Below are positions 1 to 30,700 of a stretch of DNA of 64,000 bases, piece by piece (position 1 is the stretch's first letter; each line of letters opens with the position of its first letter). The stretch is from Thermoplasmata archaeon (GTDB taxonomy: Archaea; Thermoplasmatota; Thermoplasmata; Thermoplasmatales; ARK-15). Made by a program: the position numbers and the translations under genes. The notes beneath the pieces are model-generated. The model saw only the letters and a list, made by a program, of their open reading frames with translations. It did no database searches and was not told the DNA's origin. The stretch covers positions 27,679-91,678 of the forward strand of contig JBAMMA010000006.1 in assembly GCA_039794005.1 (NCBI GenBank). Reading direction: 5' to 3'.

Positions 1-3000
1 CAAAAATGGTTTTAGAGAATATTTCTCCTTCACGTATGATACTGCGTTCTTCACATCATGGAGATGCATGTGATCCTTTGAAAATAGGTATAATCTTTTT
101 ACATTTATGAAGCCAAACATTTCATAAAACTTTTCAGCAAAAATCTTTATTGCGGTTTCACGATCTAAATCGGATTCAATGTATACTAGAGTATTCTTAG
201 GACCCTCGCACAAAACCGATTTTTCTATTAGATATTCTATGATCTTTGATGTCTTTTCCTTTCCCAGGATGGATTCATATTCAATGCTGTTCCTTTCGGG
301 CATAAAAGATTCTTTTATTATGTTGATGATTTTTCTGTCATCCTCCCCTATTTCAGGATTCTTAATAGATTGAAATATTCTTGCGTTTTCCTCGCTCACG
401 TATGTAATGATATCTGGAATGCCCCTCGTCTCGCACAATACCCTACTTCTCTTTAATCTTTCGGTTGATATGTATTGAACGCATTTGCTTGCAATTTCAA
501 TGTCGCTCCTTAAGCCCATGTTCTGTTTTTCAAGGTCCATGGGAAGCCTTTTCATGTTGTACCTATAATAACCCTGCTTAAATGCAGCATATGATAATAT
601 GTCGTAATAAGTTAATTCTCCAGTTATTACTTCATTTGATATTAAAAATTCATCCTTTTTCCTGTAATTTTCAATTTCAATGTTATCTTTATTCTTTATC
701 AAAATATAGCAATTGTCATAATATTTTGATAAAAATTCCATACTTTTCAAAAATTCTTCCCTTGAAACAAATTCATAATCCCTTATCACCAATATATCAT
801 ATTCATATTGTGAAAAAATTGCACCCTCAGGCTCATTTTCCTTTATATAATAATATGTGAATGTTTCAGGGAACTTCTGAATTATTTTGTTTTTTAAATA
901 TATAAATATTGGATCGTATGAATCAATGATAATGCTGTATTTTTCATCTGAAGATCCAATCTCTCCATAGAACCTTATTCCTGAAACATCTTTTATTTCA
1001 AATGATTTAATCAATTCTGAAACCTCTTTTGAATCTACTCCCAATAAATCACAAAGCTCTGATGAAGTCAATGGACCATACGTTTCTATTATCTTCTTGA
1101 AAATATTATCCTTTGGCCTTTCCTCTCCAACATAGATAAATCTGTCCGATGGCTCTATGAATTCATCTTCGTAAAATTCCCTTGATACTATCGCATTTTT
1201 TTCCAGAAGAGTTATATAATTCTTAACTACCTTCTGGTTTAAAGATAATATTGAGGATATTTTTTCAATGTCCACAGAATTGTTTGAGGATAATATGGAA
1301 ATTATATTTTTGATATTATCATCGTATTCAAATTCATAAATCCTGAAAAGGTGTGCGTATTCTTTTAGAATATAAATATACCTATTCCCCAGGAATTTCC
1401 CGTATATTATTTCATTTCTTTTCCTTAAATTCACCCATTCATCCATGCTGAAATTATTCACTCTTAACGATGCTTCAAAAGGAGTCCTGAAAAATATGTA
1501 ATATCTGAATGCCTCCTCTATAGAATTAAACTTTTTCAATGCTTTTGATATTCTATAATTGTTTATTTTATTTATATCAAAGTTGGCCGTTGGCCTTAGA
1601 TTCAGATAGTCTTGATATAGCATATATTGTATATCATAACCTGGAAGAAACTGCCCTGATATTACTATCTTATCATTTTCCATTTCTCTTAAAATATCTT
1701 TTGTTATTTCTTCCCTGGCATTGATGTAATATGATATCTCAGATAATGTTATGGGCCCATAATAACCCAGGATCTTTTCTATCAAAAATTTTCTTGATTC
1801 AATTATATCTGCCCTTTCAACGTTCCTTTTGTCATAATATATTTCACCGGCTTTTATATCTATTCTTTTAATTAAATACGCCTTTTCCAGATTTTTCAAT
1901 ATTTCAAAGACCTCATCCCTTTTAAGTCCAGACAATTTCCATATCTCCGTGGAAGAGTTTTTATTTATTGAATTCAATACCTTGAGAACCTTTTCATCTT
2001 GCACGATATCCCTTGAATATACTGCTGCATAATATTTAACATATTCTGGAATGGTGAACAAAACCTTTTCGGCATATATGGACTCAATTTCACCATTCCT
2101 CAATTTTTCTAAAGCGTATTCTCTCAGTTCATCATATGGGATATCCGAATGATCAAAGATGTTTATTCCCTTTTGCTGCAGTATATCTGCCGCCCCCACA
2201 TCCCTGAAAAATTCGAATATGTCTTCCTTATTTTTAATTTTAAATTTGGATGAAAAGTAGGAATTTATTTCTTCTGGATTGAATAAATATCCCTGATTTT
2301 CTCCAAGAACCTTTTTTAGTATGTTCATGTGTATTTCCCTAAACAATGCTGAGCGGTCCTCCATCAATACTATGTCTGATACACCGGCCAAAATTATTGA
2401 GTTTGCAAATACGGAGGGCCTCTCCGAATAATCCTTCAGTTTTATTTCAATCTCACCATTCTCAATCTTCTTCAAAATTTCCAATGCGTTTGGGACATCC
2501 ATGGTTATGTTGAATATTTCATTAAATGTTTCTTCTATAACAGGGAAATCTGGGATGTCAGATAAAATTTGAAGCATCTTATCGCTTTTCAGCTGCTGTT
2601 TTGTAACGGATATATCTTGTCCCTTATACTTTTTCAAAACCATGAAAGATCTTGCGGCACAATGCCTAAACCTTTGCTTAAAGAGTTCTGAATTAAAAAC
2701 GGCTGACCTTAAATCCCTTAGAAAAGAACTTGAATTTATTAAAGATAGAACGTCTTTCAGTGGAATTTTCTTTTGCACGGTTATCATGAATGCGTCATCT
2801 GTTACAGTTATTCTCGTTCCTACTGAATATTTGTTTGCAATTTTATAGGCATATGCCCTCGAAAGGGAATCGTTCACCCTCCTTCCATATGGGAAATGAA
2901 AAATTATGTTATACATGCCAGATGGGTCAACATAACCCTCAATCAGAAGTGATTTATCTGTTGGAACGTGGTCTATCATCTGCTCCTTTATGTATTTATA

Positions 3001-5502: not shown

Positions 5503-7782
5503 ATGATTAAAAAAATATTGGCTATTTTTATAATTATTGTTTTGATCTTAACCATACCCATGAATTTTTCAAAGTCTTCCAATCCTTATTGTAATAAAGA
5601 AACGGTCACTTTTTACATTCAAAATTTAACAAATTCAGTAAATGTAAACAATGTTACCACCACATATACATTCAATACTTTAAAAGGTGTAAGGGGTACA
5701 ATTGATCATTCTGTTCATTATATAATTGAGGACTGGTATTTATATCCACTACTGGCTGGAAATTTCTATATTTTTAATGGAACCTTTTGGATATATATTA
5801 GATTTAATGGAACGGATAACAATCCAAATTTATATTTGACTTTATACGAAAGGTCTCCCTCCGGCCAGGAAACACAAATAGCAAGAGGGTCTTCTCATCC
5901 AATACTTGCAACCTCAATAGAATCTTATTCAGTAAGTTTTAACACCACAGGGGTTGAGATTCCCTCTGGATATTCTTTGCATATTCATTTTGAGCTAGCC
6001 GGTGGTACTTCAACAATTTATTGGGTATACTATGGTAATTCTACGTATGCATCTGGAATGAATATAATTACAAATACCTCAATGTATATAAGCTCCGTTG
6101 AAACTTTAAATTATTTAAATCAGCCAGTCAAAGGATTTAGTCCAAATTCAACAAACAAACAAATAACGTTTTTAGCATACATAAACGATCCTCTGGGGGG
6201 ATATGACATAAGAAATGTTTCATTAAACATAAACGGAATTTCTTATATAATGATTAAAATTTCTGGAACAGAGGATTCATATACAAATATATATGAATTG
6301 CAATTAAACTATACCGGCTGGCAAACGGGAAATTATACTTATACCGTCTATGCACTTGACTATTCGGGTTTTTATTATTACCAAAATTATTACAAATATT
6401 TATGCTATCTAAGGTCATACGAATCATATTTTTGGATCGGATTCCCATTAAAGATAGATATCACATTATACACATCATCAGGAATTCCAGTTTCAAATGC
6501 TTACGTTGGATTGCGGGTAAATAATACTGTATACGGAAATTACACTATAAATGGGAAAACCTTAATATATGCATATGCTGGCACATATAATATTTTCATT
6601 GTTTATGACAATTATACTCTGCCTCCTGTAATGAAGACAATAATGAATGGAAAGGTATATGGAAATGTAATTAGTATTTCAAATTCAACAAACATAACGA
6701 TATTTTCAGACATTGGAAATTCATCCATAGAAATTCTGACATCAAACGGAATTCCAATTTACAATGCCCTGGTTTACATTCAATATCCCAATGAAAAGAC
6801 TTTTATTTATCAAACTCCAAAAAATGGAACGTTAACATTTTATAACGTTGGTGGAGGAATTTATAAGGTTGTTGTGTATTATCAGGGAGTTGAAGTGTAC
6901 AATTCTACGGTGAATTTTGTATTTAATACAAGCAGTCCTTCTATTTTATTGAAAATATTTACGAAGGTATACAACGTAGAAATAATAGCTGGAAGCTATG
7001 CAGGAATAAACATTTCAAATGTTATGATTTTCATTAAGAATGTTTATGGATCTGAAAACATTAATACTACGAATTCTTCTGGAATTTCAACATTTGAATT
7101 ACCTTATGGAAATTATCAATATGAAATGGAATATATGAATACAATAGTTTCAGAAGGCAGTTTCAATGTAAGTAATAATGAATCTTTATATATTAAAACA
7201 GAAATATTCAAAGTGAATATAAAAATAGTGGATTCCCTTGGGAATACATTGAATTATTCTTACGTGGAACTAATTGGAAATGGTAACACATTAACCACAA
7301 TTTCAAATGGAACTTTATCATATATAATACCAATTGGAAATTATACAATAAATGTCTATTGGGATAACAAAGACGTGAATTCAACAAACATTTTTGTTTA
7401 TGGAAATGAGAATATAACTATAAATAGCAGGGTATATTATTTGACGGTAAATGTCTATGATTCAAATAACATTCCCCTGAATTCATCATTTGTCATAGTT
7501 GAGAATAATCAAACGGTTGTTGCATTCTCATACAAGCCAATAAACACATTTAAGCTACCTTACGGTAATTATAGGATTTACGTTATTTATAAAGATACTT
7601 ACTATTGGACAGATATAAATTTAATAAAGGAATACAACGTCACATTGAACAGTAATTATTTAATAAATGCAAAACTTCCATTCCCAATACCTTTTTATGA
7701 AACAGTTCTGTTCATTTTTGTTGTTATATTCTTAATTGCAATTGCACTGACTTTCATAATCACAAGAAAGATATTCAAATGA
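5503..7782 (+). CDS. secreted, C-terminally membrane-anchored surface glycoprotein candidate (possible S-layer or cell-surface protein)
   Basis: N-terminal hydrophobic signal/anchor (MIKKILAIFIIIVLILTIPM). C-terminal TM plus basic tail (VLFIFVVIFLIAIALTFIITRKIFK). Dozens of N-x-S/T sequons, Y/N/T/S-rich beta-type composition, and five tandem repeat modules. Confidence 0.55.
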   Translation: MIKKILAIFIIIVLILTIPMNFSKSSNPYCNKETVTFYIQNLTNSVNVNNVTTTYTFNTLKGVRGTIDHSVHYIIEDWYLYPLLAGNFYIFNGTFWIYIRFNGTDNNPNLYLTLYERSPSGQETQIARGSSHPILATSIESYSVSFNTTGVEIPSGYSLHIHFELAGGTSTIYWVYYGNSTYASGMNIITNTSMYISSVETLNYLNQPVKGFSPNSTNKQITFLAYINDPLGGYDIRNVSLNINGISYIMIKISGTEDSYTNIYELQLNYTGWQTGNYTYTVYALDYSGFYYYQNYYKYLCYLRSYESYFWIGFPLKIDITLYTSSGIPVSNAYVGLRVNNTVYGNYTINGKTLIYAYAGTYNIFIVYDNYTLPPVMKTIMNGKVYGNVISISNSTNITIFSDIGNSSIEILTSNGIPIYNALVYIQYPNEKTFIYQTPKNGTLTFYNVGGGIYKVVVYYQGVEVYNSTVNFVFNTSSPSILLKIFTKVYNVEIIAGSYAGINISNVMIFIKNVYGSENINTTNSSGISTFELPYGNYQYEMEYMNTIVSEGSFNVSNNESLYIKTEIFKVNIKIVDSLGNTLNYSYVELIGNGNTLTTISNGTLSYIIPIGNYTINVYWDNKDVNSTNIFVYGNENITINSRVYYLTVNVYDSNNIPLNSSFVIVENNQTVVAFSYKPINTFKLPYGNYRIYVIYKDTYYWTDINLIKEYNVTLNSNYLINAKLPFPIPFYETVLFIFVVIFLIAIALTFIITRKIFK
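6448..7599 (+). repeat. five tandem protein-level repeat modules (about 55 aa each, 80-90 aa period) inside the surface protein; CarboxypepD_reg/PEGA-like pattern
   Basis: Recurrent pattern at aa 316-370, 408-462, 489-546, 569-622 and 645-699. Each has ...(I/V)x(I/V)...G(I/N)P(I/L)xN(A/S)xV....G(T/L)..(F/Y)xLPxGNYxxxVxY. Examples are YGNYQYEMEY, IGNYTINVYW and YGNYRIYVIY. Confidence 0.5.
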
Positions 7783-9198: not shown

Positions 9199-10047
9199 TT
9201 AACACATAGGTAATAATAACGAAAAAATTTGATTTTTAAAAAATAAATATGAAAATTAACACTTTTTAATTAGTCAAAGATTCATTATAACCTTTATTAT
9301 AATTTCAATATAATTTTAACAATCTTGATATAGAAATTAAATGTTTAAACATTCTTTACATCTTTTTTAACCCGATACAGAGAATCTTGTGATATAAACT
9401 TATACCTGAAACATTCTTAAGTCTAAATGAAAAAATCAATGAATTCCTTACTCTTAAATATTTCATGATCCTTTATATATTTTAAATAATCCTCCTCATT
9501 TATATTGATTCTCATACTTATATCAAGGTTCTTGGATTACTGCCGATGTATCTGATTCGCTCAAATATTACATGTTTCCTAGCATATATATTGATGTAAT
9601 CGATCTAGTTATCCTTATTCCTAAATTGTTAAGATATCGTAAAATATATTATTTTGTGAATTTTTGAATCCAAAAGAAATGCGTGAAATTTGATTTAGAT
9701 ATTTTCAACCATAAAAGAGAATATTTTAGGAAAATAATTGTTTAAAAAGAAGGTACGAAAAATTGGAGGAGGTTAAAAAACTATATTTAATGTTTATTTG
9801 AGAATTTTAGGATTTTTTCGAATTGAAAAATATGTATCCATAAAAATTAATTTCCACGCTTAAAGGGGATTATTAATATGAAGGGATATATATACTTGCC
9901 TGGTAAGGAATAGATAATATTTGATATTAAAAAGGGCAAATGTGAAAAAATTCTAACAAAATTTTAAATAATGGAATATCATAAATTTTCATTGAAAAAA
10001 TTGATAAATATATTTTAATTTAAAAAAGCATATGAGGTGTATTTAAG

Positions 10048-10251
10048 ATGAATCTATATGAATATATTAATAACTTATTTTCCTTGTTATACCTGCAGAA
10101 TTTAATAAATAAAAATGGGAACATTAAAATAGTAAAGATAAATGCTATTTTAAACGAAAAATCAATTCTTACTTTTCAACCAAATGATGATATAAAGTAT
10201 CCTTTAACAGCCTCTTTTAAAGTTGGTGATTCTTTGATAAAAGAGAAATAA
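10048..10251 (+). CDS. hypothetical small protein (67 aa), first gene of a micro-ORF operon
   Basis: ATG preceded by GAGGTG 8 nt upstream (SD-like). Stop overlaps the next start (TAATG). No recognisable motif. Confidence 0.4.
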   Translation: MNLYEYINNLFSLLYLQNLINKNGNIKIVKINAILNEKSILTFQPNDDIKYPLTASFKVGDSLIKEK

Positions 10252-10445
10252 TGAATATAAAAAAAGAAATAGAAAAGCATGTTAAAGGGGATTTTTATAA
10301 TTTGTATAAAAGATATCCTACTGAAAATGAACTTGAAACATTCATATCTGAAAATATAACATTCGTTATAAAATTTTATCCGGATGAAATTTATCTAATT
10401 CCAATTTATAAAAATATTAATAGAGTGAAAATAAATTTTGGTTAA
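10251..10445 (+). CDS. hypothetical small protein (64 aa)
   Basis: Start overlaps the stop of the preceding ORF. Composition is protein-like (KEIEKHVKGDFYNLYKRYPTENELETFISE). No recognisable motif. Confidence 0.4.
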   Translation: MNIKKEIEKHVKGDFYNLYKRYPTENELETFISENITFVIKFYPDEIYLIPIYKNINRVKINFG

Positions 10446-10456
10446 AGGTGTTGAAC

Positions 10457-10555
10457 ATGATAGATAGCAACTTTGATAGAGAGATCCTTCCAGAAAAGAT
10501 AAATGACCTTTTTGATACATTAAAAGATTTAAAAAATTTATTTGTATTATTATAA
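10457..10555 (+). CDS. hypothetical micro-protein (32 aa)
   Basis: Not in the track because it is shorter than 60 aa. Read by eye: AAAGGTG then 7 nt then ATG; MIDSNFDREILPEKINDLFDTLKDLKNLFVLL, stop TAA at 10553-10555. Confidence 0.25.
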   Translation: MIDSNFDREILPEKINDLFDTLKDLKNLFVLL

Positions 10556-11071
10556 ATATTTTCTTTAATATATCATCTTAAATTAACTGAACTTTCGTAT
10601 ATTCACCATTTATTTCATAATGAAACTGAATAAGCAACTGGATAAAACAATCTGTAATGCGATGAGAGATATGATATGTGAAATTCAGATAGAATTTGAA
10701 CTTCCTTTTATCATATTTTATTTGAAGCTATCTTCCATTTATTTTCCTTTTAAGCTTATATGTTTTCAATGCTTATGATTCCTGATATTTTTCTGTCTTA
10801 AAAAACGATGATGGAATTGCAAATATTCTTTCATTTAACTATTTACATTTCTCTTATTGAGATTATTTTTGTTGAATATTTTTTAAAATTATAGTAAAGA
10901 TAATCCATATTGGTTATTTAAACTGCTTTATCTTTTCAATGAGCGTTATTTATTACTCTCAAGAATTTATTTATATATTTACATTGAAAAATGTTCATGT
11001 ATCTATTCCCCGAAGGTTGCAGTATAAAGATTTTCATAAATCGTTAACATTGCCATAGAAATGTATATTAT

Positions 11072-11095
11072 TATTATGCTCATTTAAGCATAATA
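11072..11095 (+). promoter_or_regulatory. 9-bp inverted repeat (TATTATGCT-N6-AGCATAATA) ending on the A of the wtpA start codon
   Basis: Read directly: tattatgct cattta agcataata, positions 11072-11080 and 11087-11095. Could be an operator or an mRNA hairpin occluding the start codon. Confidence 0.35.
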
Positions 11096-14059: not shown

Positions 14060-15186
14060 AAAAAAGCATAATAAAATAACAATCTTAATTTTTATCCCTT
14101 ATAATTCGGATTTAGATGATAATTTATATGATTATTCAAATATTTATTTTCTAATCTTGAAAAAATTGTACATTGGCCTGGCATTACAAGATTTATATTG
14201 TTAATTAAAAGAGTATTTTTTCTTTCATTGATTTTATTTAATATCTATGACCTATACGTTCTGACAGGTATCATGATTAAATTTAATACAAAATATTATT
14301 CATGAAAATGGAAAGATAAAATTGGCAGGAGTTTTTTACAATAATGCCTTTTCCCATCATCTATTTTCTTCCTTTCAATTTTATTATTTTTAAAATTAAA
14401 TTTTCTAATTGTATTTTTTTGTACCTGGGCATCGTTTTAAGCACAATTCATTTTCATGCAATAAAGACATGTATAGTGAATATAAAAACAAAATTCAAAA
14501 AATTTTAATCAAATAATATAAATGACGAATTTTGGGGAAGCATAAAATCTCTTATATTTTCAATATCATAAGAAATCAATTTTTTATTATATTTTTTGCA
14601 TAAATAGCATCTTTAAATGAAACGTATTTTCCAAAGATTGAAGAAATCGTTTAATTCTCATTGAAAATATTAAAATAAGACAGATTTTATGATTTTATTC
14701 CGGTCAGCGTAATTCAGATCTTTGATCTGGGATAGAACAAAGTGATTAAAAACTATACTTTCTACTTTAAAAATCTCGTGTCATGGATATAAGTTATAAA
14801 TATTAATTTAAAGGAATACTCGTTAAAGTTTTCCAATCCAATATCCAGACCTATGTCAGAGTCTAAAAAGATATATCATCCTTGATGTACTTTTCCGTAT
14901 TCTTAATTCTTTTTTGTTTTTTTATTTTTATGTCTATTTTTGCTTCTTGTTAAAAAATGGCCAAAAAACACAGAAAATAATAATAGAATCTAACATAAAT
15001 GGAATGCATAGAGGCATATAAAATTTAATTACAGGCTTCGATATTTTTTTAAATATATATTAGCAAATATTATCTTTATGTATTGAAATCCACACCATAC
15101 ATATTCTGAATTTATATAACATTTATAAAAGATTATCAATATATTTTTACATTTTGTCTCCTTATTGAATATTGCCAATTAAAAAA

Positions 15187-19437: not shown

Positions 19438-20244
19438 ATGAATGCATATTTTAAAATAATCAGGCCTGTAAATTCATTCATGTCCGCATTCTCAGTTATT
19501 GTTTTATCCATTTCAATAGGAAAAATTGATTTTATAAAAATATTATTTGGTATGTTAGTTACATTTCTTACAACATCTGGTGGTAATGTTATAAATGATT
19601 ATTTTGATTATGAAATAGACAAAATAAACCATCCGGAGAGACCCATTCCCTCTGGAAAGATTGATAGAAATCATGCCCTATACTATTCAATTTTACTTTT
19701 TATTTTAAGCGTTATATTTTCGATATTTCTGGGAATAATACCTTTAATAATAGATGTGATTGCTATTTTATTGTTGATAACATATGAATATAAAACAAAA
19801 AATGTTGGTTTCATAGGGAATTTACAAATTTCATTCTTAATATTCATGTTGTTTCTCTTTACAGGTTCAATATATTCAGAATATATTTTACCGTCCCTGC
19901 TAGGTGTTATGGCAATGTTTTCAAATCTTGCAAGGGAAATAACAAAAGATGTTGAGGACGTTGAGGGAGATATAAACAGAGTAACGTTACCTAAGAGGAT
20001 TGGAATAAAAAAATCGCTTTGGACATCCACAATTTTTGTTTTATTATCTGTTTCATTATCACCCCTACCATACTTCTTAAAATTCTATAATATTTATTAT
20101 ATTATAATAGTATCAATTGCAGATGCTATATTTTTATATTCTTCTTACATACAATGGAAAGATCAAAGGAAAGGTCAAAAATATTTGAAATTGGCAATGA
20201 TAATTGCCTTGATCTCATTCCTCATCGGAGGTCTGTTTAGATGA
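19438..20244 (+). CDS. digeranylgeranylglyceryl phosphate synthase (UbiA-family prenyltransferase)
   Basis: Polytopic membrane protein with NVINDYFDYEIDKINHPERPIPSG and a second Asp-rich motif KDVEDVEGD. Confidence 0.85.
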   Translation: MNAYFKIIRPVNSFMSAFSVIVLSISIGKIDFIKILFGMLVTFLTTSGGNVINDYFDYEIDKINHPERPIPSGKIDRNHALYYSILLFILSVIFSIFLGIIPLIIDVIAILLLITYEYKTKNVGFIGNLQISFLIFMLFLFTGSIYSEYILPSLLGVMAMFSNLAREITKDVEDVEGDINRVTLPKRIGIKKSLWTSTIFVLLSVSLSPLPYFLKFYNIYYIIIVSIADAIFLYSSYIQWKDQRKGQKYLKLAMIIALISFLIGGLFR

Positions 20245-20987
20245 ATGTTGAAAAATATTTGATTGAAAAAATAAAGAATGAAAAAGTGCACCTCACATTA
20301 ATAGATCCCGCTAAACAGAGCCCTGAGAAGGCTGGAGAAATTGCAAAAAATATAGAAAAATCCGGGTCTGACGGAATAATGATCGGTGGCTCAACACATA
20401 TTACAAATGATTTAATGGACAACACAATATTAAAAATCAAGGAAAATTCATCACTTCCGGTTATAATTTTCCCAAGCGGAGTAAGCAGTATTTCAAAACA
20501 TGCTGACGCTATATTTTTCATGAGCATGTTGAATTCATCATCCAGGGAATTTTTAATAGAGCATCAGGTTATGGCATCTAAGCCGATTAAAGATATGAAG
20601 ATAGAACCAATATCAATGGCCTATCTGGTTGTTGAACCCGGTATGACTGTTGGAAAAGTAGGAAGGGCAATTTTAATAAAAAGGGATGACATAAGAACAG
20701 CAGTTTCATATGCTTTGGCCGCCCAGTTCCTAGGATTCCACTTTGTTTATTTGGAGGCTGGTTCTGGTGCACCTGATCCTGTAAGCGAGGAAATGGTAAA
20801 GGCTGTTAAAAGCGAAATAGACATTCCCCTGATAGTTGGTGGGGGTATAAGAACACCCGAAAAGGCAAAAAGTATTGCCTCATCCGGGGCCGATATAATA
20901 GTTACGGGCACACTCGTTGAAAAGCATCAAAATTACGGGGAAATCATAGAATCGATAGTTAAAAGCATAAAAAATATTAAATATTAA
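20241..20987 (+). CDS. geranylgeranylglyceryl phosphate synthase (PcrB/GGGPS family)
   Basis: HLTLIDP, GSDGIMIGGS, FVYLEAGSGA, IPLIVGGGIRTPEKA. ATGA start/stop overlap with the DGGGPS gene. Confidence 0.85.
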   Translation: MNVEKYLIEKIKNEKVHLTLIDPAKQSPEKAGEIAKNIEKSGSDGIMIGGSTHITNDLMDNTILKIKENSSLPVIIFPSGVSSISKHADAIFFMSMLNSSSREFLIEHQVMASKPIKDMKIEPISMAYLVVEPGMTVGKVGRAILIKRDDIRTAVSYALAAQFLGFHFVYLEAGSGAPDPVSEEMVKAVKSEIDIPLIVGGGIRTPEKAKSIASSGADIIVTGTLVEKHQNYGEIIESIVKSIKNIKY

Positions 20988-21007: not shown

Positions 21008-21331
21008 ATGCTTATTAAAGACAAGAATAATAAGGATGCAGAAAATACAGATTTATCTCTATCAATACTCTATGATAAAGAGAAGAATATTGAGAACGAA
21101 ATAAAGGAGATATCTCTGGAAATTACAAAAATAAAGAATGATCTGACAGAAATCAAAAAATCGCTCGGTATTCTGCAGAACAGTCTTTCCACTTTAAATG
21201 TTATATCCACAAAAATAAGCTCAATTGAATTCACTTTGAATGATAAACTTGATAAAAAAACGGATGAAATCGTATCAACCATATTAACGACAATTCCGGA
21301 AAAAAAAGAAAGAAAGAAAAAAAATTTATAA
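21008..21331 (+). CDS. hypothetical coiled-coil protein with basic C-terminal tail (107 aa)
   Basis: Heptad-like K/E/I/L-rich sequence (NIENEIKEISLEITKIKNDLTEIKKSLGILQNSLSTL) ending PEKKERKKKNL. Lies 12 nt upstream of the large ATPase gene. Confidence 0.45.
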   Translation: MLIKDKNNKDAENTDLSLSILYDKEKNIENEIKEISLEITKIKNDLTEIKKSLGILQNSLSTLNVISTKISSIEFTLNDKLDKKTDEIVSTILTTIPEKKERKKKNL

Positions 21332-21343
21332 TGGTTGATTGAA

Positions 21344-23869
21344 ATGGGAGGGGAATTAGACGTTAAAAATAATGCATATTATTTTAGCTTTCCCAACGTT
21401 CATGTAGACAAGGAAACGCACAAAGATTTGTCTTTGATATATTCCAACTATGTACATTCAACGCACAGATCATTTGGAATAGGCATTTTTGTAAATAATG
21501 GGAACGTAAATTTCTTTACATCTAACGATGACATATATTCATTGAAAACGATTTACAAGAATTTAGAGAGGGATCATATAATAGGTAAATTTGATATCAG
21601 GAATTTTAATCATAATTTTACATCTGCATTTACGAAAAAGGATTTTATAAATCCGTATAATGAAAGGATAGATTTTTTTGAACACATAATATCTTACATT
21701 TCATGGTTCCACGATATATCTTTTCTGCTTTACATACTTCTCGAACCTTGGTATTATGAAAAAAATAGGAAGGTTTTCAAAATAAGGATTAAACTTTCAC
21801 TTGATGATAAAAATTATTCGGATAGATTGATATCAATAATAGAATCCTACTGGGGAAATGCTAACAATAGATTGAAAATGGTTCCTGAAAATAGGATTAA
21901 CATATTTTACAAAAAGTATGCATATTTGGATAACAAATTCTTTCATACAATAATTCCTTATCCAGGGGAGCACATATTAAAAATTAAAAAGAAAAATATC
22001 GAAAATGATATAAAGATAAGAATACCGATTGGAAATGATTCTGTATCATCAGAGGAGATTAATTTATTGTTAAATGAATATGATGGTTCTACAACATTTA
22101 TAATAGGACAAACAGGTTCTGGTAAAAGTACTCTTTTATTAAACATTTTTTCAAGAATTAAAGAATTGGATTATCCAATAATAGTTCTAGATCCGACGGG
22201 AGATTTGGCCAGAAAGATGATTAATATAACTGACGATAAAAGAACAATATACATTTCTCCCATTGAAGTTCCTGTTTCAATGAATTTGATGAAGAGTGCA
22301 CATGAAAATATAAAATATAGTGCTCCCAAAATTGCTGAAGATTTAATAATGATGTTAAAAGATGTTACAGAGAGCGAATCAAAAATACCCGGAGGCCTTG
22401 TTGGGACAAAAATTGAAGATATAATAAGAAATTCCGTTGCCGGTTTGGCAGAACTGCCAAATACAACAATTCTTGACATTTATGATATTATTTCAAATGA
22501 GGAAAAGAGGAAAATGTTTCATTCGATTTCAAAAAACGAGGAGTTTAAAAATTTCCTTGAAAGAATTGAAGATATGGATGATGAAGACATTGGAAGCACC
22601 AGGAGGGTATTATCATTCATAAAAACGAATCCAATTTTAAAAGAAATGTTATGTTCACGATCACCACTCTTTGACTTCGAGGAAATATTTGAAAAAAATA
22701 TGATTGTGATCATAGACGGAGATAGATCTAACATAGGTGAAAATGTATCTAAATTCATATTATCTTCAATGTTGACAATGATATGGATAAATGTGCAGAG
22801 GAAAAATAAAAAGGCATTTTTAATATTGGATGAAATACAGGACTATTCAAATTCATCGCTGAATGAAATGGTATCAATGGGAAGGAAAAATAATGTTGAA
22901 ATACTGATGGCAACAACACATCTGTCATCTTTAAAACCCGGCATCATAGATTCTCTTATGGCAAATGCAAAAAATTTCGTTATATTTAAGAGCTCACCTT
23001 CAGACGCGAGGGATTTTTCAGAAAAGATAGGAATTGACAAAAACGTTTTAATTAATCTGGATATTGGAAAGGCATACTTCCATTCATCTTATTATTCGGG
23101 AATAATAAACACACATAATATCAAATTTATTGAAAAGGATTACAGAAATATAATTTCTTATTCAAAAATGTATGTTCATAACATTCCAAAGAAAAATAAA
23201 TCCATTATTTATGACACAATATTTTTGAAATCCATGAACGTTGAGCCTTCGATTGAAGAAATAAAGAACATCAGGATATATTCAAAAACCGGTGATCAGG
23301 ATAGCATAGAAGAAGAAATAAAAAATCTATTGGATAATGGTGAAATTGAGATCAAGAACAGCGTTATATCATTGAAAAACAACATAGTTTTGGATAAAAG
23401 GATAGAAAAATTGATTTCCCTTGGTTTGCTAATTAGGGAAAATGGAGAACACAAATACCTTTGTTTCCCCTATTCGGGTTTTGGATCATTGAACTTTTTT
23501 GAAAAGGTAAATGTGGAATTTTTGGAAAATGAAATAATATTAAACGATAAAATATATTCCCTGGAAGAATTCTTGCAGATAAAGAATGATGATAAATTGC
23601 TGAAATTAATTGAAAACATGTTTGGATCTTTAGATGGGAAAAATATTATAATTACATCATCAAGAAAAATTTCAGAATGTTTTAGAAAATTATATCCGGA
23701 TGAATCAAAATATTATATGAATACATTGGAAAGAGCTATTAAAAATGAATTGTTGAGGAATAAAAAAGCTGAATTGATAAAAACAAAAATAGGAAAAATA
23801 TCCATGAGGGTTTTAAAACTAAATATTTCCAAAATGCCAGATTGCGATATATACATTGATAATTCATAG
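21344..23869 (+). CDS. large P-loop NTPase of the FtsK/HerA superfamily (TraD/VirD4-coupling-protein-like or HerA-like) with unknown N-terminal domain and wHTH-like C-terminal region
   Basis: Walker A FIIGQTGSGKSTLL (nt 22106-22132) followed by IIVLDPTGD. About 230 aa of mostly helical insertion. Walker B AFLILDEIQDY (22817-22834), then MGRKNNVEILMATTHLSSL. C-terminal LDKRIEKLISLGLLIRENGEHKY. The track start is TTG 21335; the first ATG is 21344. Confidence 0.6.
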   Translation: MGGELDVKNNAYYFSFPNVHVDKETHKDLSLIYSNYVHSTHRSFGIGIFVNNGNVNFFTSNDDIYSLKTIYKNLERDHIIGKFDIRNFNHNFTSAFTKKDFINPYNERIDFFEHIISYISWFHDISFLLYILLEPWYYEKNRKVFKIRIKLSLDDKNYSDRLISIIESYWGNANNRLKMVPENRINIFYKKYAYLDNKFFHTIIPYPGEHILKIKKKNIENDIKIRIPIGNDSVSSEEINLLLNEYDGSTTFIIGQTGSGKSTLLLNIFSRIKELDYPIIVLDPTGDLARKMINITDDKRTIYISPIEVPVSMNLMKSAHENIKYSAPKIAEDLIMMLKDVTESESKIPGGLVGTKIEDIIRNSVAGLAELPNTTILDIYDIISNEEKRKMFHSISKNEEFKNFLERIEDMDDEDIGSTRRVLSFIKTNPILKEMLCSRSPLFDFEEIFEKNMIVIIDGDRSNIGENVSKFILSSMLTMIWINVQRKNKKAFLILDEIQDYSNSSLNEMVSMGRKNNVEILMATTHLSSLKPGIIDSLMANAKNFVIFKSSPSDARDFSEKIGIDKNVLINLDIGKAYFHSSYYSGIINTHNIKFIEKDYRNIISYSKMYVHNIPKKNKSIIYDTIFLKSMNVEPSIEEIKNIRIYSKTGDQDSIEEEIKNLLDNGEIEIKNSVISLKNNIVLDKRIEKLISLGLLIRENGEHKYLCFPYSGFGSLNFFEKVNVEFLENEIILNDKIYSLEEFLQIKNDDKLLKLIENMFGSLDGKNIIITSSRKISECFRKLYPDESKYYMNTLERAIKNELLRNKKAELIKTKIGKISMRVLKLNISKMPDCDIYIDNS

Positions 23870-25441
23870 AAAATCGAAAAGTGTACTCTGTCCTTTAATA
23901 TTTTTTCTATTCAATTTATTATCACTTTTGCTCATGTTTTTCAACTTTGATTTCATCTTTTTTTCTTTCATCAATGAGGCATAATACATGTTTTCGTCCA
24001 TTGTATCCTCGTATATTAAAAACACAACCCTCCCCGGCCTTGCCCTTCCGGTTCTACCTCTCCTCTGTATATTTCTTATTTCTGAACCTACGGCCTCATG
24101 GAATATTACGAGGTCTGTTTCGGGGATATCTAAGCCTTCTTCTCCGATCTGAGTGCTTATTAATACGTTTATTTCACCGTTTTTAAACATTTCAAGTATT
24201 TTTATCTGTTCTTTTTGAGACATGCCCTTGTCTGAACCCTTTGAGCTCTGACCCAAAAACCTTGATGGCTTAACTCCGGGTAATGTTGATAAATAATTAT
24301 AAAGATCCATGTTTATGTTTCTATAATTTGTAAAGACAATTATCCTGGATTTTGGATTTCTCTTTAACTGATCCAATATAATATCTCCTATCACCTTTAT
24401 CTTAGGTGATATTGATGACTTTTCAACCAAATACTTTGCTCCAATTATCAGATCTACAAATTCTTTCATTTTGGATAATTTCATATCACCCTTGTTTTTC
24501 TTCTCAATTCCATTTTTATATATTTCTTCGAGGTATTCTAGAGATGTTTTTGGGTCCTGGGTTTCAAGGTATTCGATTGCAACCAACATCTTCATTATTA
24601 TTCCTATATAAGATAACAATGGATAAAATGATTTATTACCATTCTGTATTTCATTCCATATGCTTTTTTGCAATTCAACAACTTGACCCTTTGTCAATTT
24701 CTTTGGTATATTTATGTCTGGATACTTTTCTTCAATCTCATTTATTACCTTCGATATTATTTCCCTCAACTTTTCCCTCATGGGTTCAAATTCTGAGGGA
24801 AATTCCAATTTTATAACTTCTATCTTTACACCGTGTATGTATGGGGTAACATCTTCATCGGATTCTGTTCTTATTTCAACATTTTCAATATGAAGATTTT
24901 GCATGATCTCCTTCAGTCTTTCCTCATCTGATCCTGGAGATGCCGTCAAGCCTATTATCAACGCATTTTTACATTTTTCTGTAACATATGTATAAGCATA
25001 CTTTCCAACAGACCTATGAGCTTCATCGACTATGAGCAGTTTTATTTCATCCGGATTGAAAATATTTGATGAAATGTCATTTTCAATAACTTGTGGTGTG
25101 CTAACAATGATGTCGTTATTTTCATAAAGTTCTTTTCTCTGTTCTTTTTTAATGGTTCCCGTTATACTAACGATCTTTTGATTTTTCAGATATTTTTTAA
25201 GCCTTTCTGCATGCTGGTTTACCAAAGGCCTAGTAGGGGCAAGCAGTAATATTTTAGGGCCTCTTTTGTTTAAAAGTTCAGCCATGATGAGAATCGCAAT
25301 TTCTGTTTTTCCTGCACCCGTTGGCAAAACTATTAATGAATTTTTTCCCTTATTTAATACACTTTTTGCAATTGATTCCTGGTATTTTCTTCTCTCCAAT
25401 GTATTTTCTTTTATTTCTGGATGATTTACGTATTCAGGCAT
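23864..25441 (-). CDS. hef: Hef/FANCM-family SF2 helicase, helicase domains only (no XPF-type nuclease domain)
   Basis: Collinear with the remembered Pyrococcus Hef helicase part: RRKYQESIAKSVL..NSLIVLPTGAGKTEIA, LLLAPTRPLVNQHAE, LLIVDEAHRSVGKYAY, GLTASPG, IIVFTNYR, LISTQIGEEGLDIPE, IQRRGRTGR. The ORF stops at aa 525, where Hef has its linker. Confidence 0.8.
   Translation of the reverse strand: MPEYVNHPEIKENTLERRKYQESIAKSVLNKGKNSLIVLPTGAGKTEIAILIMAELLNKRGPKILLLAPTRPLVNQHAERLKKYLKNQKIVSITGTIKKEQRKELYENNDIIVSTPQVIENDISSNIFNPDEIKLLIVDEAHRSVGKYAYTYVTEKCKNALIIGLTASPGSDEERLKEIMQNLHIENVEIRTESDEDVTPYIHGVKIEVIKLEFPSEFEPMREKLREIISKVINEIEEKYPDINIPKKLTKGQVVELQKSIWNEIQNGNKSFYPLLSYIGIIMKMLVAIEYLETQDPKTSLEYLEEIYKNGIEKKNKGDMKLSKMKEFVDLIIGAKYLVEKSSISPKIKVIGDIILDQLKRNPKSRIIVFTNYRNINMDLYNYLSTLPGVKPSRFLGQSSKGSDKGMSQKEQIKILEMFKNGEINVLISTQIGEEGLDIPETDLVIFHEAVGSEIRNIQRRGRTGRARPGRVVFLIYEDTMDENMYYASLMKEKKMKSKLKNMSKSDNKLNRKNIKGQSTLFDFL
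23867..23890 (-). other. C-terminal PIP-box-like motif QSTLFDFL (putative PCNA-interacting peptide) of the Hef-like helicase
   Basis: The last eight residues fit Q-x-x-L-x-x-F-(F/L). Compare the remembered archaeal RFC-L C-terminal QATLFDFL. Confidence 0.5.
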
Positions 25442-26058: not shown

Positions 26059-26256
26059 TTATTTAACCCATGTAGCCCTTTCTATATCCCTTTCTTTTTT
26101 TGTTTTTTTCTTGTATTGCTTATAATGTTCTTTGCATAGATGTATATGAGAGGAATTTGTTTTAAGACTAAACATATTTTCTACCTTTTCCCTTGGCAAT
26201 GACTTTACAGCCTGTTCACTGCATCCTGAGACATCACATATCGTATTTTCTCTCAT
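26059..26256 (-). CDS. hypothetical small basic protein with Cys/His cluster (65 aa)
   Basis: CDVSGC...HIHLCKEHYKQYKKKTKKERD. Stop lies 1 nt from the marC-like start. No family recognised. Confidence 0.4.
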   Translation of the reverse strand: MRENTICDVSGCSEQAVKSLPREKVENMFSLKTNSSHIHLCKEHYKQYKKKTKKERDIERATWVK

Positions 26257-26708: not shown

Positions 26709-26729
26709 CAAAAATTTTTAGTTTAATAT

Positions 26730-27030
26730 GCGAAGAGCCCGAGGGCAACTGACGCTGGTATCTATGTGATACCGGTGAGGAAAGTCCCCCCTCCTGAGAC
26801 ACCGGTCACACCGCAAGGTGTGGTCTCGAGAGAGACGGCAATGGCACAGAAACGACACAGCCATGGTAAAGGATGATTTCATGCGAAGGACGTTTCCATG
26901 GATTTGTTGAAACGGCCAACCACCGGGGAGCAAGCCCAAGCAAACGCGATGACAGGTCTCTCGAGCGTTGGGTGGGGCGCATAGTCGAATGTTGCCTGAA
27001 ACAGAAGGGGGCTTACTACGGGCACTTCGC
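26730..27030 (+). ncRNA. rnpB: RNase P RNA (archaeal type A-like)
   Basis: GC-rich island of about 300 nt. P1 pairing is GCGAAGAGCCCG...CGGGCACTTCGC. Universal CR-I GAGGAAAGTCC at about 26778. CR-V-like ACAGAAGGGGGCTTAC at 27001-27016. The ORFs on both strands here (26718..27032, 26873..27055) have Arg/Pro/Gly/Cys-rich nonsense composition. Confidence 0.9.
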
Positions 27031-27031
27031 A

Positions 27032-30000
27032 CTAAATTTCATAATACCTGTATGAAAACGCCTTTTTAACGCTATTTGATATTTCATCGAATATTTCTTT
27101 TAATGTTTCAATATAATCCCTCTTTCCACTTTCAATTTCATCAATTTCTTCGTACAACTTCGCTGTTCTGTTTTCACTTACAAGATGCGGATAATTGTTT
27201 ATTAGATATCCATAACCTTCTTCTCCCAGGGTTGTTGAATATAGATATTTAGACTTATCTTTTATAACATATTTCCTCGTCTCCAGGTTTGTGATTATCA
27301 TTGAATATGTGCTTGGTCTTCCCAATTTCTTGTTTTTCATATCCCTTACCAGTTCACCTTCCGTATAAGGATTTACTTCCGATATGTATATGTTCCACTT
27401 GGGCTGTAAAATACATTCCTTCATGCACATCCTTTTTACACTTTCACCCATTGATTCTTTTATGACTGAGGGTGTGTAAACAAACTTCTTTAAAATGTTC
27501 ATATCTATATCATCAAGTTTAACAGAAACAATTCTCTTTTCCATGTTCTTTATTTCTATGATTTTGCCGTTCAATTCACCCTCCAATATTATATTCTCCT
27601 CCTCATATTTCACATTGTCAATCTGTGATGTTATAAATCTTTTGAATATCATATTGTATAATAATAAATGGTCCTTTGTCAATCTGCCTTCAAATGATAT
27701 TTCACCAGATTCTATTGAATCTATGAGCATTTCGAGGTCTAGGGGTTTTGTTGGCCTGATGCATTCATGCGTACCGGATTCTCCCCAACTCCTTGGTTTG
27801 AAAAATTCAATATCATCTTTTCCAAATATCTGTTTAAAATACGATTTTGCAATCGATATGCCGTGCCGTGATACGTGGGTGGAATCGGTTCTATGGTATG
27901 TTATTAAACCTAGCTCAAAGAGATCCTGGGCCAGGTTCATGGTCTTTCCAACATCGAATTTTAATATATATGAGGCATCGGTTAAAAGCGTATCGGTGGT
28001 ATAAGGAGGCAATATTGCCATATCATTTATTTTATATTCTATGGACTTTAGCCTTGCTTTTATTGGCTCCGTAACCTGAGAATCAATTATAAACGATAAT
28101 TTTTCTATACCTTCTATCTTCAGTATTGTTGAAAGTCTTCTCATTTTATAATATTCTTTTGTCCTTTCTACAATCCATCCCAAGACCGGTGTTTGAACCC
28201 TTCCTGCGCTCAAATTCTTGTTTATTTTACAGTTTACCTTATCGCTTAGACCCACCTTCTTGCAATAGAATCTCCAAAATACAGTCTGCATTTTCCTTGA
28301 TAAAACAAACCCAACCCACCTGTCTTCAATCCTCCTTACTAGCTGGGCTTTGATCATATTCAAATCCATTTCCCTTGGGCTATTTATCGCCTTTAGTATG
28401 GCCTCTTTTGTCACCTCATGGAATTCCACCCTCTTTATGTTTCTGTTCATAGGCCTGATATTTAAAAATATGTCCCATGCAATCTTTTCGCCTTCAATAT
28501 CCGGATCTGTACCTATAAAAACCTCATCCACTTCAAATGCAAGCTTTCTTATATCTTCAATTGTATTAATTTTATCCATTACTATTTCTTCACCGCATTT
28601 TGGACACCTGTTTCTAATGGAATCTGTTACCTGATGGCCATTCTTACACCTCTTGATGGAATTGTAATATGGAATAAAATTGATTTCACCATCTTTTTCA
28701 ACCTTTTCAATTCCATAGAATCCCAATGGTCTGGTTGTAAGATCAAAAAGATGGCCCTGTGATGCAACGATCATCATTGTCATTTTACCAAGGAATGTTT
28801 CGTAAATCCTTATTCCGTTCATGTCAAAAAATCCAGGTTTTCCAAAAAATGATGATATTGTCCTTGCTTTAGTAGGAGATTCGACAACCATTAAAACATG
28901 TTTCATTTCCGATAATGATGATATTACATTTTTTTCAATGCCATCATTCATTATATCCCTATCTTTTTCAACCTCCCTTATGTTTAATTCCAAATTTTCA
29001 ATTCTCTCTTTTTCAAAATCTTTGAATTCTATATCGGGAATTGAAATTTTCAATTTATTCTCAAACTTTGAAAAGAGGGCATCGTTTTCATATAACACTA
29101 TAGATATCCCCTTTGTAAGTTGTCCTCTGAACAATCTTGAAGTTCTACCAGATGCATGAATATATGTTGTATGTGACGGTACCATGACCCAGCCATTCAT
29201 AATAACAAAGTTTGTCTGCTTATTCATATAATCTGTAAATTCGGGATCGTTTAGATATCTTTCAACGATCTCATATGCCTTTTTGATATCTTCATCAACA
29301 TTTTGTTCCTCAATCTTTTTCTGTAAAACAATCAATGCCCCTTGGCTCATGTTTTTTAACATCTTTTTCATCTTTTTTGATAATGAAGAAATCTCGGGAT
29401 CATTGCTTTTTCTGGCAATTAAATTTAATATTCTTACCATCTGCTGGAATGGTAGTATTTCACCTATCTTTATTGCAAATTTCGGAATACCATAAAAAAT
29501 GGAATACTTAATTCTCCATGGTATATCTATACCTCTTACCAAAAGACCATTATGACTCGACACTCCGACGAGAACATTCACTTTACCATTGATAAAATCT
29601 TCAATACCCTTAGAATTTTTGGAAGTAATGGCCAAAGATTTTATTCCATTTTTATTTAAATATTTTGATATTTCTTCAGCCTTTTCAATTCCATATTCCG
29701 GAGATACAAATATTATTATTCCATCCTTAAACATTTTAACCATATTTAATATTTTGTTCATGCCATCTTCCAGTTTAGCCTTATAATCTATGATATTTCT
29801 CAAAAATATTGAAACGCTACCGGGCCTGAAGCCTAAAACGGATGTGATCAATTTATTACCACCTGTCATTGTTGCGGATGAAAATATTATAATTTTATCC
29901 TTCAACTTTTTATTTTTAATTTCCTGCAGCTTTCTATACCTCTCAACATCATCTTGTTCCTTCAATATTTCCTGTATCCTTGAAATATCGTTTTCATCAA

Positions 30001-30700
30001 ATCCTATTACCTTCAATATGGAATATACACCCTTTTTTGTTTTTATCGCTGAATCAATATCATCAACAAAGATTAAATTGTATTCCAAAGAAGTTATTTT
30101 TTCAGCATTGTTCATTATATATCTTCCTGTAAAAACGGCAATATCAAAGTTTCCGGAATAAAAATTGTTCTCATTTTCTATTCTTTCAGCTTTTTTCATT
30201 CCTGAATGAACGGAGACTATTTTTGGATTTAAGCCCAATTTTTCAGCATATTCTTTTAAAATTTTTAATGATTGATCTAGCAATGTTCTTGTTTGAAATA
30301 TCAGTATAGATTTTTTACCTTTTGTAAAATAGTATAAAGAGGATATCAATCCAAAGGTAGTTTTACCAAAACCTGTAGGTGCTACAATTCCAAAACTTTG
30401 ACCTCTAGATAATCTGGATATCCAGGACCTTTGAATTCCTGAAGGAGAAAAACCTATTGAACCTTTAAACAGCTTTTCAAAATCTTTCAACATATTGATT
30501 GTATTTTCCATCCATTGCAAATTTTTCAGCTTACCTAAAAATTTCAAATTTTCAACCAATTCAATTGGACTACTGAATTCTTTATGACCTGATAGACACT
30601 CCTCACAAACAGAGCCATAAAATAGCCTTCGTGCATTAATATTTTTACCACAATTCGGACATGTATTAATAAACGTTGATTCTGGTATATAAGAATTCAT
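27032..30700 (-). CDS. rgy: reverse gyrase (SF2 helicase-like domain fused to type IA topoisomerase)
   Basis: 1222 aa. N-terminal Zn finger CPNCGK...CEECL. Walker A APTGFGKTTFG. DDID box. Toprim VMVVESPTKA...GTDPDIEGEKIAWD. Second Zn finger CKNGH...CPKCG. Active-site region LITYHRTDSTHVS. Confidence 0.95.
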   Translation of the reverse strand: MNSYIPESTFINTCPNCGKNINARRLFYGSVCEECLSGHKEFSSPIELVENLKFLGKLKNLQWMENTINMLKDFEKLFKGSIGFSPSGIQRSWISRLSRGQSFGIVAPTGFGKTTFGLISSLYYFTKGKKSILIFQTRTLLDQSLKILKEYAEKLGLNPKIVSVHSGMKKAERIENENNFYSGNFDIAVFTGRYIMNNAEKITSLEYNLIFVDDIDSAIKTKKGVYSILKVIGFDENDISRIQEILKEQDDVERYRKLQEIKNKKLKDKIIIFSSATMTGGNKLITSVLGFRPGSVSIFLRNIIDYKAKLEDGMNKILNMVKMFKDGIIIFVSPEYGIEKAEEISKYLNKNGIKSLAITSKNSKGIEDFINGKVNVLVGVSSHNGLLVRGIDIPWRIKYSIFYGIPKFAIKIGEILPFQQMVRILNLIARKSNDPEISSLSKKMKKMLKNMSQGALIVLQKKIEEQNVDEDIKKAYEIVERYLNDPEFTDYMNKQTNFVIMNGWVMVPSHTTYIHASGRTSRLFRGQLTKGISIVLYENDALFSKFENKLKISIPDIEFKDFEKERIENLELNIREVEKDRDIMNDGIEKNVISSLSEMKHVLMVVESPTKARTISSFFGKPGFFDMNGIRIYETFLGKMTMMIVASQGHLFDLTTRPLGFYGIEKVEKDGEINFIPYYNSIKRCKNGHQVTDSIRNRCPKCGEEIVMDKINTIEDIRKLAFEVDEVFIGTDPDIEGEKIAWDIFLNIRPMNRNIKRVEFHEVTKEAILKAINSPREMDLNMIKAQLVRRIEDRWVGFVLSRKMQTVFWRFYCKKVGLSDKVNCKINKNLSAGRVQTPVLGWIVERTKEYYKMRRLSTILKIEGIEKLSFIIDSQVTEPIKARLKSIEYKINDMAILPPYTTDTLLTDASYILKFDVGKTMNLAQDLFELGLITYHRTDSTHVSRHGISIAKSYFKQIFGKDDIEFFKPRSWGESGTHECIRPTKPLDLEMLIDSIESGEISFEGRLTKDHLLLYNMIFKRFITSQIDNVKYEEENIILEGELNGKIIEIKNMEKRIVSVKLDDIDMNILKKFVYTPSVIKESMGESVKRMCMKECILQPKWNIYISEVNPYTEGELVRDMKNKKLGRPSTYSMIITNLETRKYVIKDKSKYLYSTTLGEEGYGYLINNYPHLVSENRTAKLYEEIDEIESGKRDYIETLKEIFDEISNSVKKAFSYRYYEI

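Follow-up and report, generated by a model that had tools for sequence, protein, structure and literature searches.

TrwB, HerA and FtsK, characterised members of one ATPase superfamily, act on DNA or DNA-protein substrates, and the C-terminal winged helix of FtsK reads DNA polarity signals. Ced and Ted are DNA-transfer systems of the Crenarchaeota. To our knowledge, archaea lack FtsK, and chromosome resolution, segregation and exchange are poorly understood in most of them. Here we describe a gene of a Thermoplasmata archaeon that encodes what appears to be a soluble, VirD4/TraG-like P-loop ATPase. It lies in a stretch of 64,000 nucleotides (assembly GCA_039794005.1, contig JBAMMA010000006.1, positions 27,679 to 91,678), referred to below as the window, and is preceded by a small gene for a coiled-coil protein. 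A first-pass annotation of the window, made from its letters alone, had proposed the two genes as a candidate two-gene system of the kind typical of defence or DNA-segregation modules.

As judged by sequence comparison, the closest named relatives of the ATPase are the VirD4/TraG-like proteins of Sulfolobales conjugative plasmids. These gave the strongest matches in a tblastn search of 72,556 plasmids (pAH1, 8e-22; pMGB1, 6e-21; pTC, 1e-20) and were followed by haloarchaeal and Thermococcus plasmids. The plasmid gene matched is ORF1019, a conserved VirD/TraG-like protein of these elements whose function is itself inferred (PMC4390865). The plasmid family (pTC1 ORF1019 and its counterparts in pAH1, pMGB1, pARN3, pARN4 and pNOB8) is colinear with the ATPase over a pre-core element and a P-loop core with its helical insertion. 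An hhalign comparison with five of these proteins (probability 99.6, E 6.9e-24) paired residues 185-736 with 216-821, and the alignment apparently reaches the winged-helix stretch of the C-terminal region; with the pAH1 protein as tblastn query, 602 residues were aligned to P0017. Like the ATPase, the pAH1 protein has no transmembrane anchor and consists of an N-terminal domain of ~255 residues, a core and a long C-terminus. The plasmid proteins differ in being larger (~1020 residues), plasmid-borne and encoded beside a TrbE-like ATPase and several membrane proteins, none of which is found here, and the first 145 and last ~130 residues of the ATPase have no detectable similarity to them. Its context, with no TrbE-like ATPase, membrane transfer protein or plasmid, and its terminal domains set the protein apart from the plasmid family.

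Architecture and relatives of the ATPase

Both open reading frames (ORFs) are real. The larger, at 21335-23869, encodes 844 residues when counted from its TTG. In all orthologues the protein begins at the equivalent of an in-frame ATG at 21344 ('MG...'), which is therefore the best start and leaves a gap of 12 nt to the small ORF. The resulting 841-residue form is used for numbering throughout.

Two Pfam families match above their cut-offs: PF10412 (TrwB_AAD_bind; 26.8 bits against 20.5, residues 252-565) and PF01935 (DUF87; 28.2 bits against 23.2, residues 256-321). A Foldseek search with the full-length model returned HerA (4d2i, 2e-10) and TrwB (1e9s, 3e-9), with the subunits of HerA and TrwB hexamers ranging from 1e-10 to 1e-8. 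Profile and model comparisons thus both place the protein in the FtsK/HerA superfamily, within its coupling-protein branch. The motifs quoted by the first-pass annotation are all present, including VLDPTGD (residues 281-287) after Walker A, and the 228 residues that separate Walker A from Walker B hold the predominantly helical insertion it had described (residues 315-450 in the AlphaFold model, predicted local distance difference test score, pLDDT, ~85-90). Walker A is invariant or nearly so in all full-length orthologues; Walker B and the GRK motif are invariant, as are D496, E497, G513, R514, K515, T524, T525 and H526. By this conservation the core appears catalytically intact, and mutated Walker motifs, which the annotation had named as a sign of decay, were seen in none of the orthologues.

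More specific models fit the protein less well. PF01580 (the FtsK motor) and PF02534 (T4SS-DNA_transf) did not match at E up to 0.01, and PF12846 (AAA_10) did not match the protein of the window, with weak matches below the cut-off in some orthologues. The curated TraD model TIGR03743 scored 21.7 bits against a cut-off of 366 and the HerA equivalog NF042943 17.3 bits against 800. Among PADLOC profiles, mad8 reached 2e-21 and the HerA models E 7e-5 or weaker. As the mad profiles derive from HHpred alignments to PDB entries, the mad8 match mainly reflects the shared HerA/coupling-protein ATPase core; identity with Mad8 of MADS was rejected, given so unspecific a profile and the lack of further mad genes nearby. 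The PHROG profile phrog_5156 (824 positions) matched at 1.3e-26, over positions 396-734 only. A match to phrog_2666, 'terminase large subunit' (2e-11), covers only the part of the core from Walker B onwards and was set aside as superfamily noise.

The best hydrophobic stretch of the protein is one borderline 19-residue segment (Kyte-Doolittle 1.62), which is modelled as a helix plus a β-strand and is polar in orthologues. There is thus no convincing transmembrane helix, and the ATPase is predicted to be soluble. Pfam, Foldseek and hydropathy together bear out the earlier description of an uncharacterised, anchor-less FtsK/HerA/coupling-protein-like NTPase.

Each of the characterised proteins shares only part of this design. 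TrwB of R388, from the VirD4/TraG/TraD group, has the same RecA-like domain with an all-alpha insertion between Walker A and Walker B (target TM-score ~0.5). Unlike TrwB, the ATPase has no N-terminal transmembrane anchor and no relaxase or secretion-system genes nearby, and carries an extra N-terminal domain of 220 residues and an extra C-terminal domain of 250 residues. HerA is the best Foldseek match and PF01935 covers the region around the P-loop; however, this Pfam match spans only 66 residues, and NurA, Sir2 or any other HerA partner is missing. The neighbours are instead PcrB, the coiled-coil gene and Hef. When the N- and C-terminal regions were modelled jointly without the core, from 11 aligned sequences (mean pLDDT 79), HerA chains were absent among the PDB matches of the model, so that an N-terminal domain of the HAS-barrel type is not supported. 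FtsK/SpoIIIE, of the same superfamily, follow a similar overall plan, with a motor placed between an accessory N-terminal part and a winged helix at the C-terminus, and are chromosomal and vertically inherited; they differ in having a membrane domain, and the core of the ATPase is of the coupling-protein type with a helical insertion. Any functional likeness to FtsK is speculation based on analogy.

Full-length relatives are rare. Five were found in an index of 5.8 billion proteins (95, 62, 36, 34 and 36% identity), and two or three further full-length clusters came from an exhaustive HMMER search of 1.84 billion cluster representatives. Of the 9606 proteins that this search returned with E of 1e-3 or below, nearly all cover only positions ~227-585. 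The nearest homologues are labelled 'Thermoplasmata archaeon', and public annotation describes relatives as 'HerA domain-containing'. In a scan of species-representative genomes, the matches listed were distant bacterial ones to the core; a separate scan of viral contigs found no relatives. We found no paper that mentions DUF8128, a domain of bacterial relatives, and none on the Thermoplasmata ATPase family. The protein has an architecture that is seldom sampled and lacks annotation, although its ATPase superfamily is well known; at present it defines a well-delimited family of hypothetical proteins and no new type of system.

The next tier of matches (E 1e-55 to 1e-33) consists mostly of 'DUF87' proteins of 780-830 residues from other Thermoplasmata, which hhalign aligned with residues 143-593 (E 1.7e-54). 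Their genes lie between a gene for a DRG-type GTPase and three genes for KaiC-like ATPases, within a few kb of the L1-L10-L12 ribosomal cluster, and the same ribosomal cluster lies upstream in two syntenic loci of the ATPase (L012, L022). This hints at positional orthology. The three KaiC-like genes are absent from the window. In the wider family the DUF87 gene is followed by three KaiC-like genes (PF06745) and preceded by the divergent GTPase gene at L011 10642-12768, L014 8406-10592 and L015 8513-10638, which looks like a conserved four-ATPase cluster near the L1-L10-L12 and Nop/fibrillarin genes.

Bacterial relatives stand alone in unremarkable contexts and carry an N-terminal DUF8128 domain (PF26449), a label that is precomputed for P0006. 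They align with residues 145-590 (hhalign, E 8.8e-40), and the first 150 residues have no similarity to them. Among phage proteins, the only match by sequence is gp156 of phage G, which is confined to the core (E 6e-4); gp156 and the ATPase both match phrog_5156, whose members include proteins of phages Slash and JL. gp156 adjoins the VirB4-like gp155, in a host and setting entirely different from those of the ATPase. In the phage G locus (L017 5271-9413), gp155 is a VirB4/TraG-P-loop-like ATPase and the coupling-protein-like gp156 is annotated as 'MsbA-like'.

The terminal regions are far more restricted than the core. A concatenated N- and C-terminal profile retrieved only family members from the 5.8-billion-protein index (8000 candidates scored, not exhaustively), PDB sequences and Pfam. 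Comparison by hhalign of the N-terminal 150 and C-terminal 250 residues with the flanks of the wider Thermoplasmata, bacterial and plasmid proteins gave nothing significant; the best value, E 0.021, was a marginal one between the C-terminal region and the plasmid TraG-like proteins, for which the N-terminal 150 residues gave E 0.034. In the joint model, the N-terminal region forms a two-lobed α/β domain (pLDDT ~70-89). The earlier view that this domain has no recognisable motif holds at the level of sequence families; the combined model nevertheless resembles predicted structures of Bacillus phage proteins, namely gp156 of phage G (3.4e-6) and one protein each of phages Slash (9.6e-6) and JL (3.9e-5). 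These are the sole significant structural matches and belong to the combined model as a whole, not to one of the two domains in particular. They are matches of fold (E 3e-6 to 4e-5) and not of sequence, and for gp156 the match is independent of that to the core. The ATPase supplies two domains without sequence-family assignment and a structural link between archaea and Bacillus phages, which hints at an uncharacterised clade of stand-alone coupling-protein-like ATPases common to archaea, candidate-phyla bacteria and phages.

The C-terminal region is modelled with higher scores (pLDDT ~80-92) as a helix-helix-helix-hairpin (residues 620-677), a helix-hairpin (685-709) and then an α/β module. 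Both helix-hairpin units bear the 'L..L...G.I.r' signature typical of winged helices, and this stretch aligns colinearly, albeit weakly, with the plasmid TraG-like proteins of Sulfolobus. The model probably contains a tandem winged helix. The winged-helix-like segment noticed by the first-pass annotation is thus matched in topology, although Foldseek against the PDB returned nothing below E 0.02 and only weak sub-threshold matches to the winged-helix proteins PadR, Pex, RTP, MAGE/Nse3 and TFIIIC and to the VirB4 homologue TrwK. Deeper orthologues carry a Cys and a CxxC ('DCEECYS', for example) in this region (window ~23460-23560, residues ~707-740; alignment columns 760-815), which may bind zinc. 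In the subclade to which the window belongs, the CxxC and a segment of ~13 residues have been lost; the same subclade has gained the coiled-coil gene.

Chromosomal position and the small coiled-coil gene

The window is a segment of housekeeping genes from an archaeal chromosome of low GC content (33%). Upstream of the ATPase and on the same strand, pyrD, pyrK, a UbiA-family prenyltransferase gene and PcrB/GGGP synthase follow one another with overlaps or very short spacers. We compared this arrangement in every full-length relative with retrieved context, as well as in P0020, which is more distant. UbiA, PcrB and the ATPase follow one another in L001, L002/3, L004/5, L012/13, L016 and L022, and the convergent Hef gene is retained in L001, L002, L004, L012 and L022, with L016 as the exception. 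PcrB overlaps the start of the ATPase gene by ~20-26 nt in four lineages and directly abuts it in one. The other neighbours are rearranged in L016 and L022, so that the adjacency of PcrB and the ATPase is the most persistent link. The ATPase gene is therefore vertically inherited in one fixed slot in six divergent Thermoplasmata lineages.

Its sequence has changed faster than that of any neighbour compared. Between the window and L001 the ATPase is 62% identical and its neighbours 70-89%; against deeper relatives the values are 34-36% and 53-73%. Divergence is concentrated at the ends, the core being ~46% identical and the flanks 21-27%. The locus had also appeared more AT-rich than its surroundings. 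The GC content of the gene is indeed low (28.9% against an ORF mean of 34.0 +/- 4.7%, the seventh lowest of 51 ORFs), but GC at third codon positions (GC3) is ordinary (28.4% against 30.6 +/- 5.2%), and the low value follows from a composition rich in Ile, Lys and Asn, not from foreign origin. A foreign origin was rejected in view of the ordinary GC3 and the fixed synteny.

Genes that might reveal a transfer or defence system are not found around the ATPase. No conjugation, NurA, Mre11/Rad50, Ced-like, integrase or defence gene occurs among the ~40 annotated ORFs of the window, in agreement with the first-pass annotation as regards conjugation, HerA-NurA and Ced genes. Relaxase, VirB4 and mating-pair-formation genes are missing from these ORFs and from seven syntenic loci, and a defence effector (nuclease, Sir2, methylase or kinase) or other mad gene from the window and the syntenic loci. 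When 15 ORFs of pAH1, including those for the TrbE-like ATPase and the integrase, were compared with the window by tblastn, only the TraG-like ORF matched, in the ATPase gene. The sole polytopic membrane protein encoded beside the ATPase is MarC, which is part of the general synteny.

The small protein agrees with its earlier description as a coiled-coil protein with a polybasic tail, encoded 12 nt upstream of the ATPase: its heptad signal is strong (reached by none of 1000 shuffles), its C-terminus reads PEKKERKKKNL and the spacing follows from the ATG at 21344. Comparison with the 73%-identical orthologue of L001 gave a proportion of nonsynonymous differences (pN) of 0.195, far below the saturated synonymous value (pS) of 0.86, which identifies the ORF as a genuine gene kept by purifying selection. 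A search of 5.8 billion proteins found just two clusters of homologues (98% and 72% identical). Wherever it occurs (the window, L001, L020 and L021) the gene is followed by the ATPase, with which it is probably co-transcribed, and these loci all belong to the subclade whose ATPases are at least 62% identical. It is absent from the five deeper lineages, in which PcrB overlaps or directly abuts the ATPase gene and leaves no room between them. The distribution of the two genes indicates that the small one is a recent, lineage-specific accessory of an older ATPase that stands alone in most lineages. Though the protein may have an adaptor or regulatory role, it did not belong to the system from the start, and the proposal of a two-gene system fails the annotation's own test, conservation of the pairing.

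Possible roles

The fixed chromosomal position and the lack of transfer genes nearby argue for a role in a transaction of host DNA. Our preferred reading, to which we give about an even chance, is that the ATPase is a ring-shaped DNA translocase for such a transaction, of a housekeeping or a DNA-transfer kind, in a narrow, uncultured and probably thermophilic clade of Thermoplasmata. The protein would assemble into a ring, as do TrwB, HerA and FtsK, and ATP hydrolysis would move or pump DNA through the central channel. The C-terminal winged helices might select a DNA or protein partner, and the N-terminal domain might form a collar for oligomerisation or docking. The motor could then serve chromosome processing, segregation or intercellular DNA transfer, as distinct from plasmid conjugation; DNA exchange with partners encoded elsewhere is a possible role.

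Several points weigh against this reading. Ring assembly and a DNA substrate are both extrapolated from homologues. The fastest evolutionary rate in the neighbourhood fits a housekeeping role poorly. The tandem winged helix, plausible from the topology of the model, draws on Foldseek matches with E above 0.1. The wider Thermoplasmata family, beside its three KaiC-like genes, is at most a candidate for orthology. In the ATTH motif (window 22910-22921), moreover, an invariant His of this clade replaces the sensor-like Gln that the wider Thermoplasmata, bacterial and plasmid relatives all keep (TQ or HQ).

The rapid divergence, most marked in the terminal domains, is what an arms race would predict, and together with the small partner gene, the mad8 match, weak matches to HerA profiles and structural likeness to the HerA of SIR2-HerA complexes it could point to a defence ATPase, HerA-type or Mad8-like, that senses or acts on invading viral or plasmid DNA with the coiled-coil protein as its partner. 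We consider this unlikely: the gene occupies its slot among housekeeping genes in six lineages and not a variable island or a patchy distribution, effectors and other mad genes are lacking in the window and the syntenic loci, the shared ATPase core accounts for most of the mad8 match, and most lineages do without the partner gene. The reading as a two-gene defence or mobile module is only partly supported, the locus being neither a defence island nor a mobile element. The plasmid relatives raise another prospect, that of a coupling ATPase domesticated from an ancient conjugative element of archaea, which exports or imports chromosomal DNA between wall-less Thermoplasmata cells in the manner of Ced or Ted. 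No named proteins are closer to it than the TraG-like ones of Sulfolobales, haloarchaeal and Thermococcus plasmids, the pAH1 protein shares the lack of an anchor and the three-part layout, and the alignment may extend into the winged-helix region; against it, no VirB4/TrbE-like ATPase, membrane channel, integrase or plasmid gene occurs in the window or the syntenic loci, nor does the ATPase have a membrane anchor of its own. This, too, we regard as unlikely.

The persistence of UbiA-PcrB-ATPase through the rearrangements of L016 and L022, and the overlap of 20-26 nt between PcrB and the beginning of the ATPase gene in four lineages, suggestive of co-transcription, would suit a role tied to the lipid genes (GGGP synthase and UbiA) or a substrate other than DNA, such as protein or RNA. 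We hold this to be very unlikely. TrwB, HerA and FtsK act on DNA or DNA-protein substrates, and we know of no precedent for a lipid-gene-linked role in the coupling-protein-like branch; the wider Thermoplasmata relatives adjoin the GTPase and KaiC-like genes and not lipid genes, and as pyrD, pyrK and MarC are also syntenic, the adjacency may simply be inherited gene order. That the gene is a decaying, non-functional remnant, as fast divergence, low GC and the loss of the CxxC and ~13-residue segment in the window's subclade might suggest, is scarcely credible given full-length frames with invariant catalytic motifs in at least eight clusters and a pN of 0.23, far below the saturated pS of 0.75.

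A plasmid-derived, anchor-less and chromosomally fixed motor of the coupling type would be a concrete candidate for chromosome resolution, segregation or exchange, the more so if the wider family is orthologous. The furthest extension is a class-wide, chromosomally fixed and anchor-less DNA pump of Thermoplasmata, present in this clade in a rapidly evolving form with terminal domains of its own. The pump would be either the missing archaeal counterpart of FtsK, for chromosome unlinking or segregation, or the motor of a new route of DNA exchange between these wall-less cells, with winged helices that read chromosomal signals; this we consider quite improbable.

Features of the window

The features of the ATPase locus are collected in Table 1. 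The Hef gene matched NF010337 with 583 bits, just under the cut-off of 610, and the match covers model positions 2-519 of 781, which indicates that the nuclease domain is lacking.

Table 1. Coordinates of the ATPase gene, its predicted domains and motifs, and adjacent genes in the window
Feature	Position	Strand	Remarks
UbiA-family prenyltransferase	19438-20244	+	upstream, co-directional
PcrB/GGGP synthase	20241-20987	+	upstream, co-directional
Coiled-coil protein with polybasic C-terminal tail	21008-21331	+	107 residues; 12 nt 5' of the ATPase start
Predicted soluble VirD4/TraG-like P-loop ATPase	21344-23869	+	841 residues; alternative TTG start at 21335 (844 residues)
N-terminal α/β domain (modelled), clade-specific part	21344-21775	+	residues 1-144
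Conserved module: PYPG-bearing pre-core element, then RecA-like nucleotide-binding domain	21776-23113	+	residues 145-590
Walker A, GQTGSGKST	22106-22132	+	residues 255-263
All-alpha insertion of the TrwB kind	22286-22693	+	residues ~315-450; AlphaFold model and PF10412 span
Walker B, FLILDE	22817-22834	+	residues 492-497
GRKNN and ATTH	22880-22921	+	residues 513-517 and 523-526; motif positions in the translation
C-terminal region, clade-specific: probable tandem winged helix, then α/β module	23120-23866	+	residues 593-841
Hef helicase without nuclease domain	23864-25441	-	convergent; the 3' ends of Hef and ATPase genes overlap by 6 nt

The remaining window genes include those for reverse gyrase, RNase P RNA, two tRNAs, Ala- and Glu/Gln-type tRNA synthetases, succinate dehydrogenase, a family-B DNA polymerase, CDP-archaeol synthase and TGT. 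The presence of a reverse gyrase gene (27032-30700, - strand) in a Thermoplasmata genome of 33% GC suggests a thermophilic lifestyle. The archaeal RNase P RNA lies at 26733-27027 on the + strand (231 bits), and a 104-residue ORF at 26718-27032 (54.6% GC) on the other strand is thus spurious. Downstream of MarC, a 65-residue ORF (26059-26256, - strand) is 57-85% identical in L001, L002/3, L004 and L012; it has no NCBIfam match, and no Pfam match is on record for it in the syntenic loci. A further ORF of 759 residues (5503-7782, + strand), next to the gene for CDP-archaeol synthase, matches no Pfam family at E up to 1e-5. Two stretches, 9200-11095 and 14060-15186, hold no ORF of at least 70 residues; they have a GC content of 22-25% and contain only short, imperfect AT-rich repeats, and the first begins just past tRNA-Val. 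At the start of the window, an ORF of more than 1600 residues (1-4800, - strand) runs off this edge and carries N-terminal DEAD/DEAH helicase motifs comparable to those of large helicases of the Lhr type.

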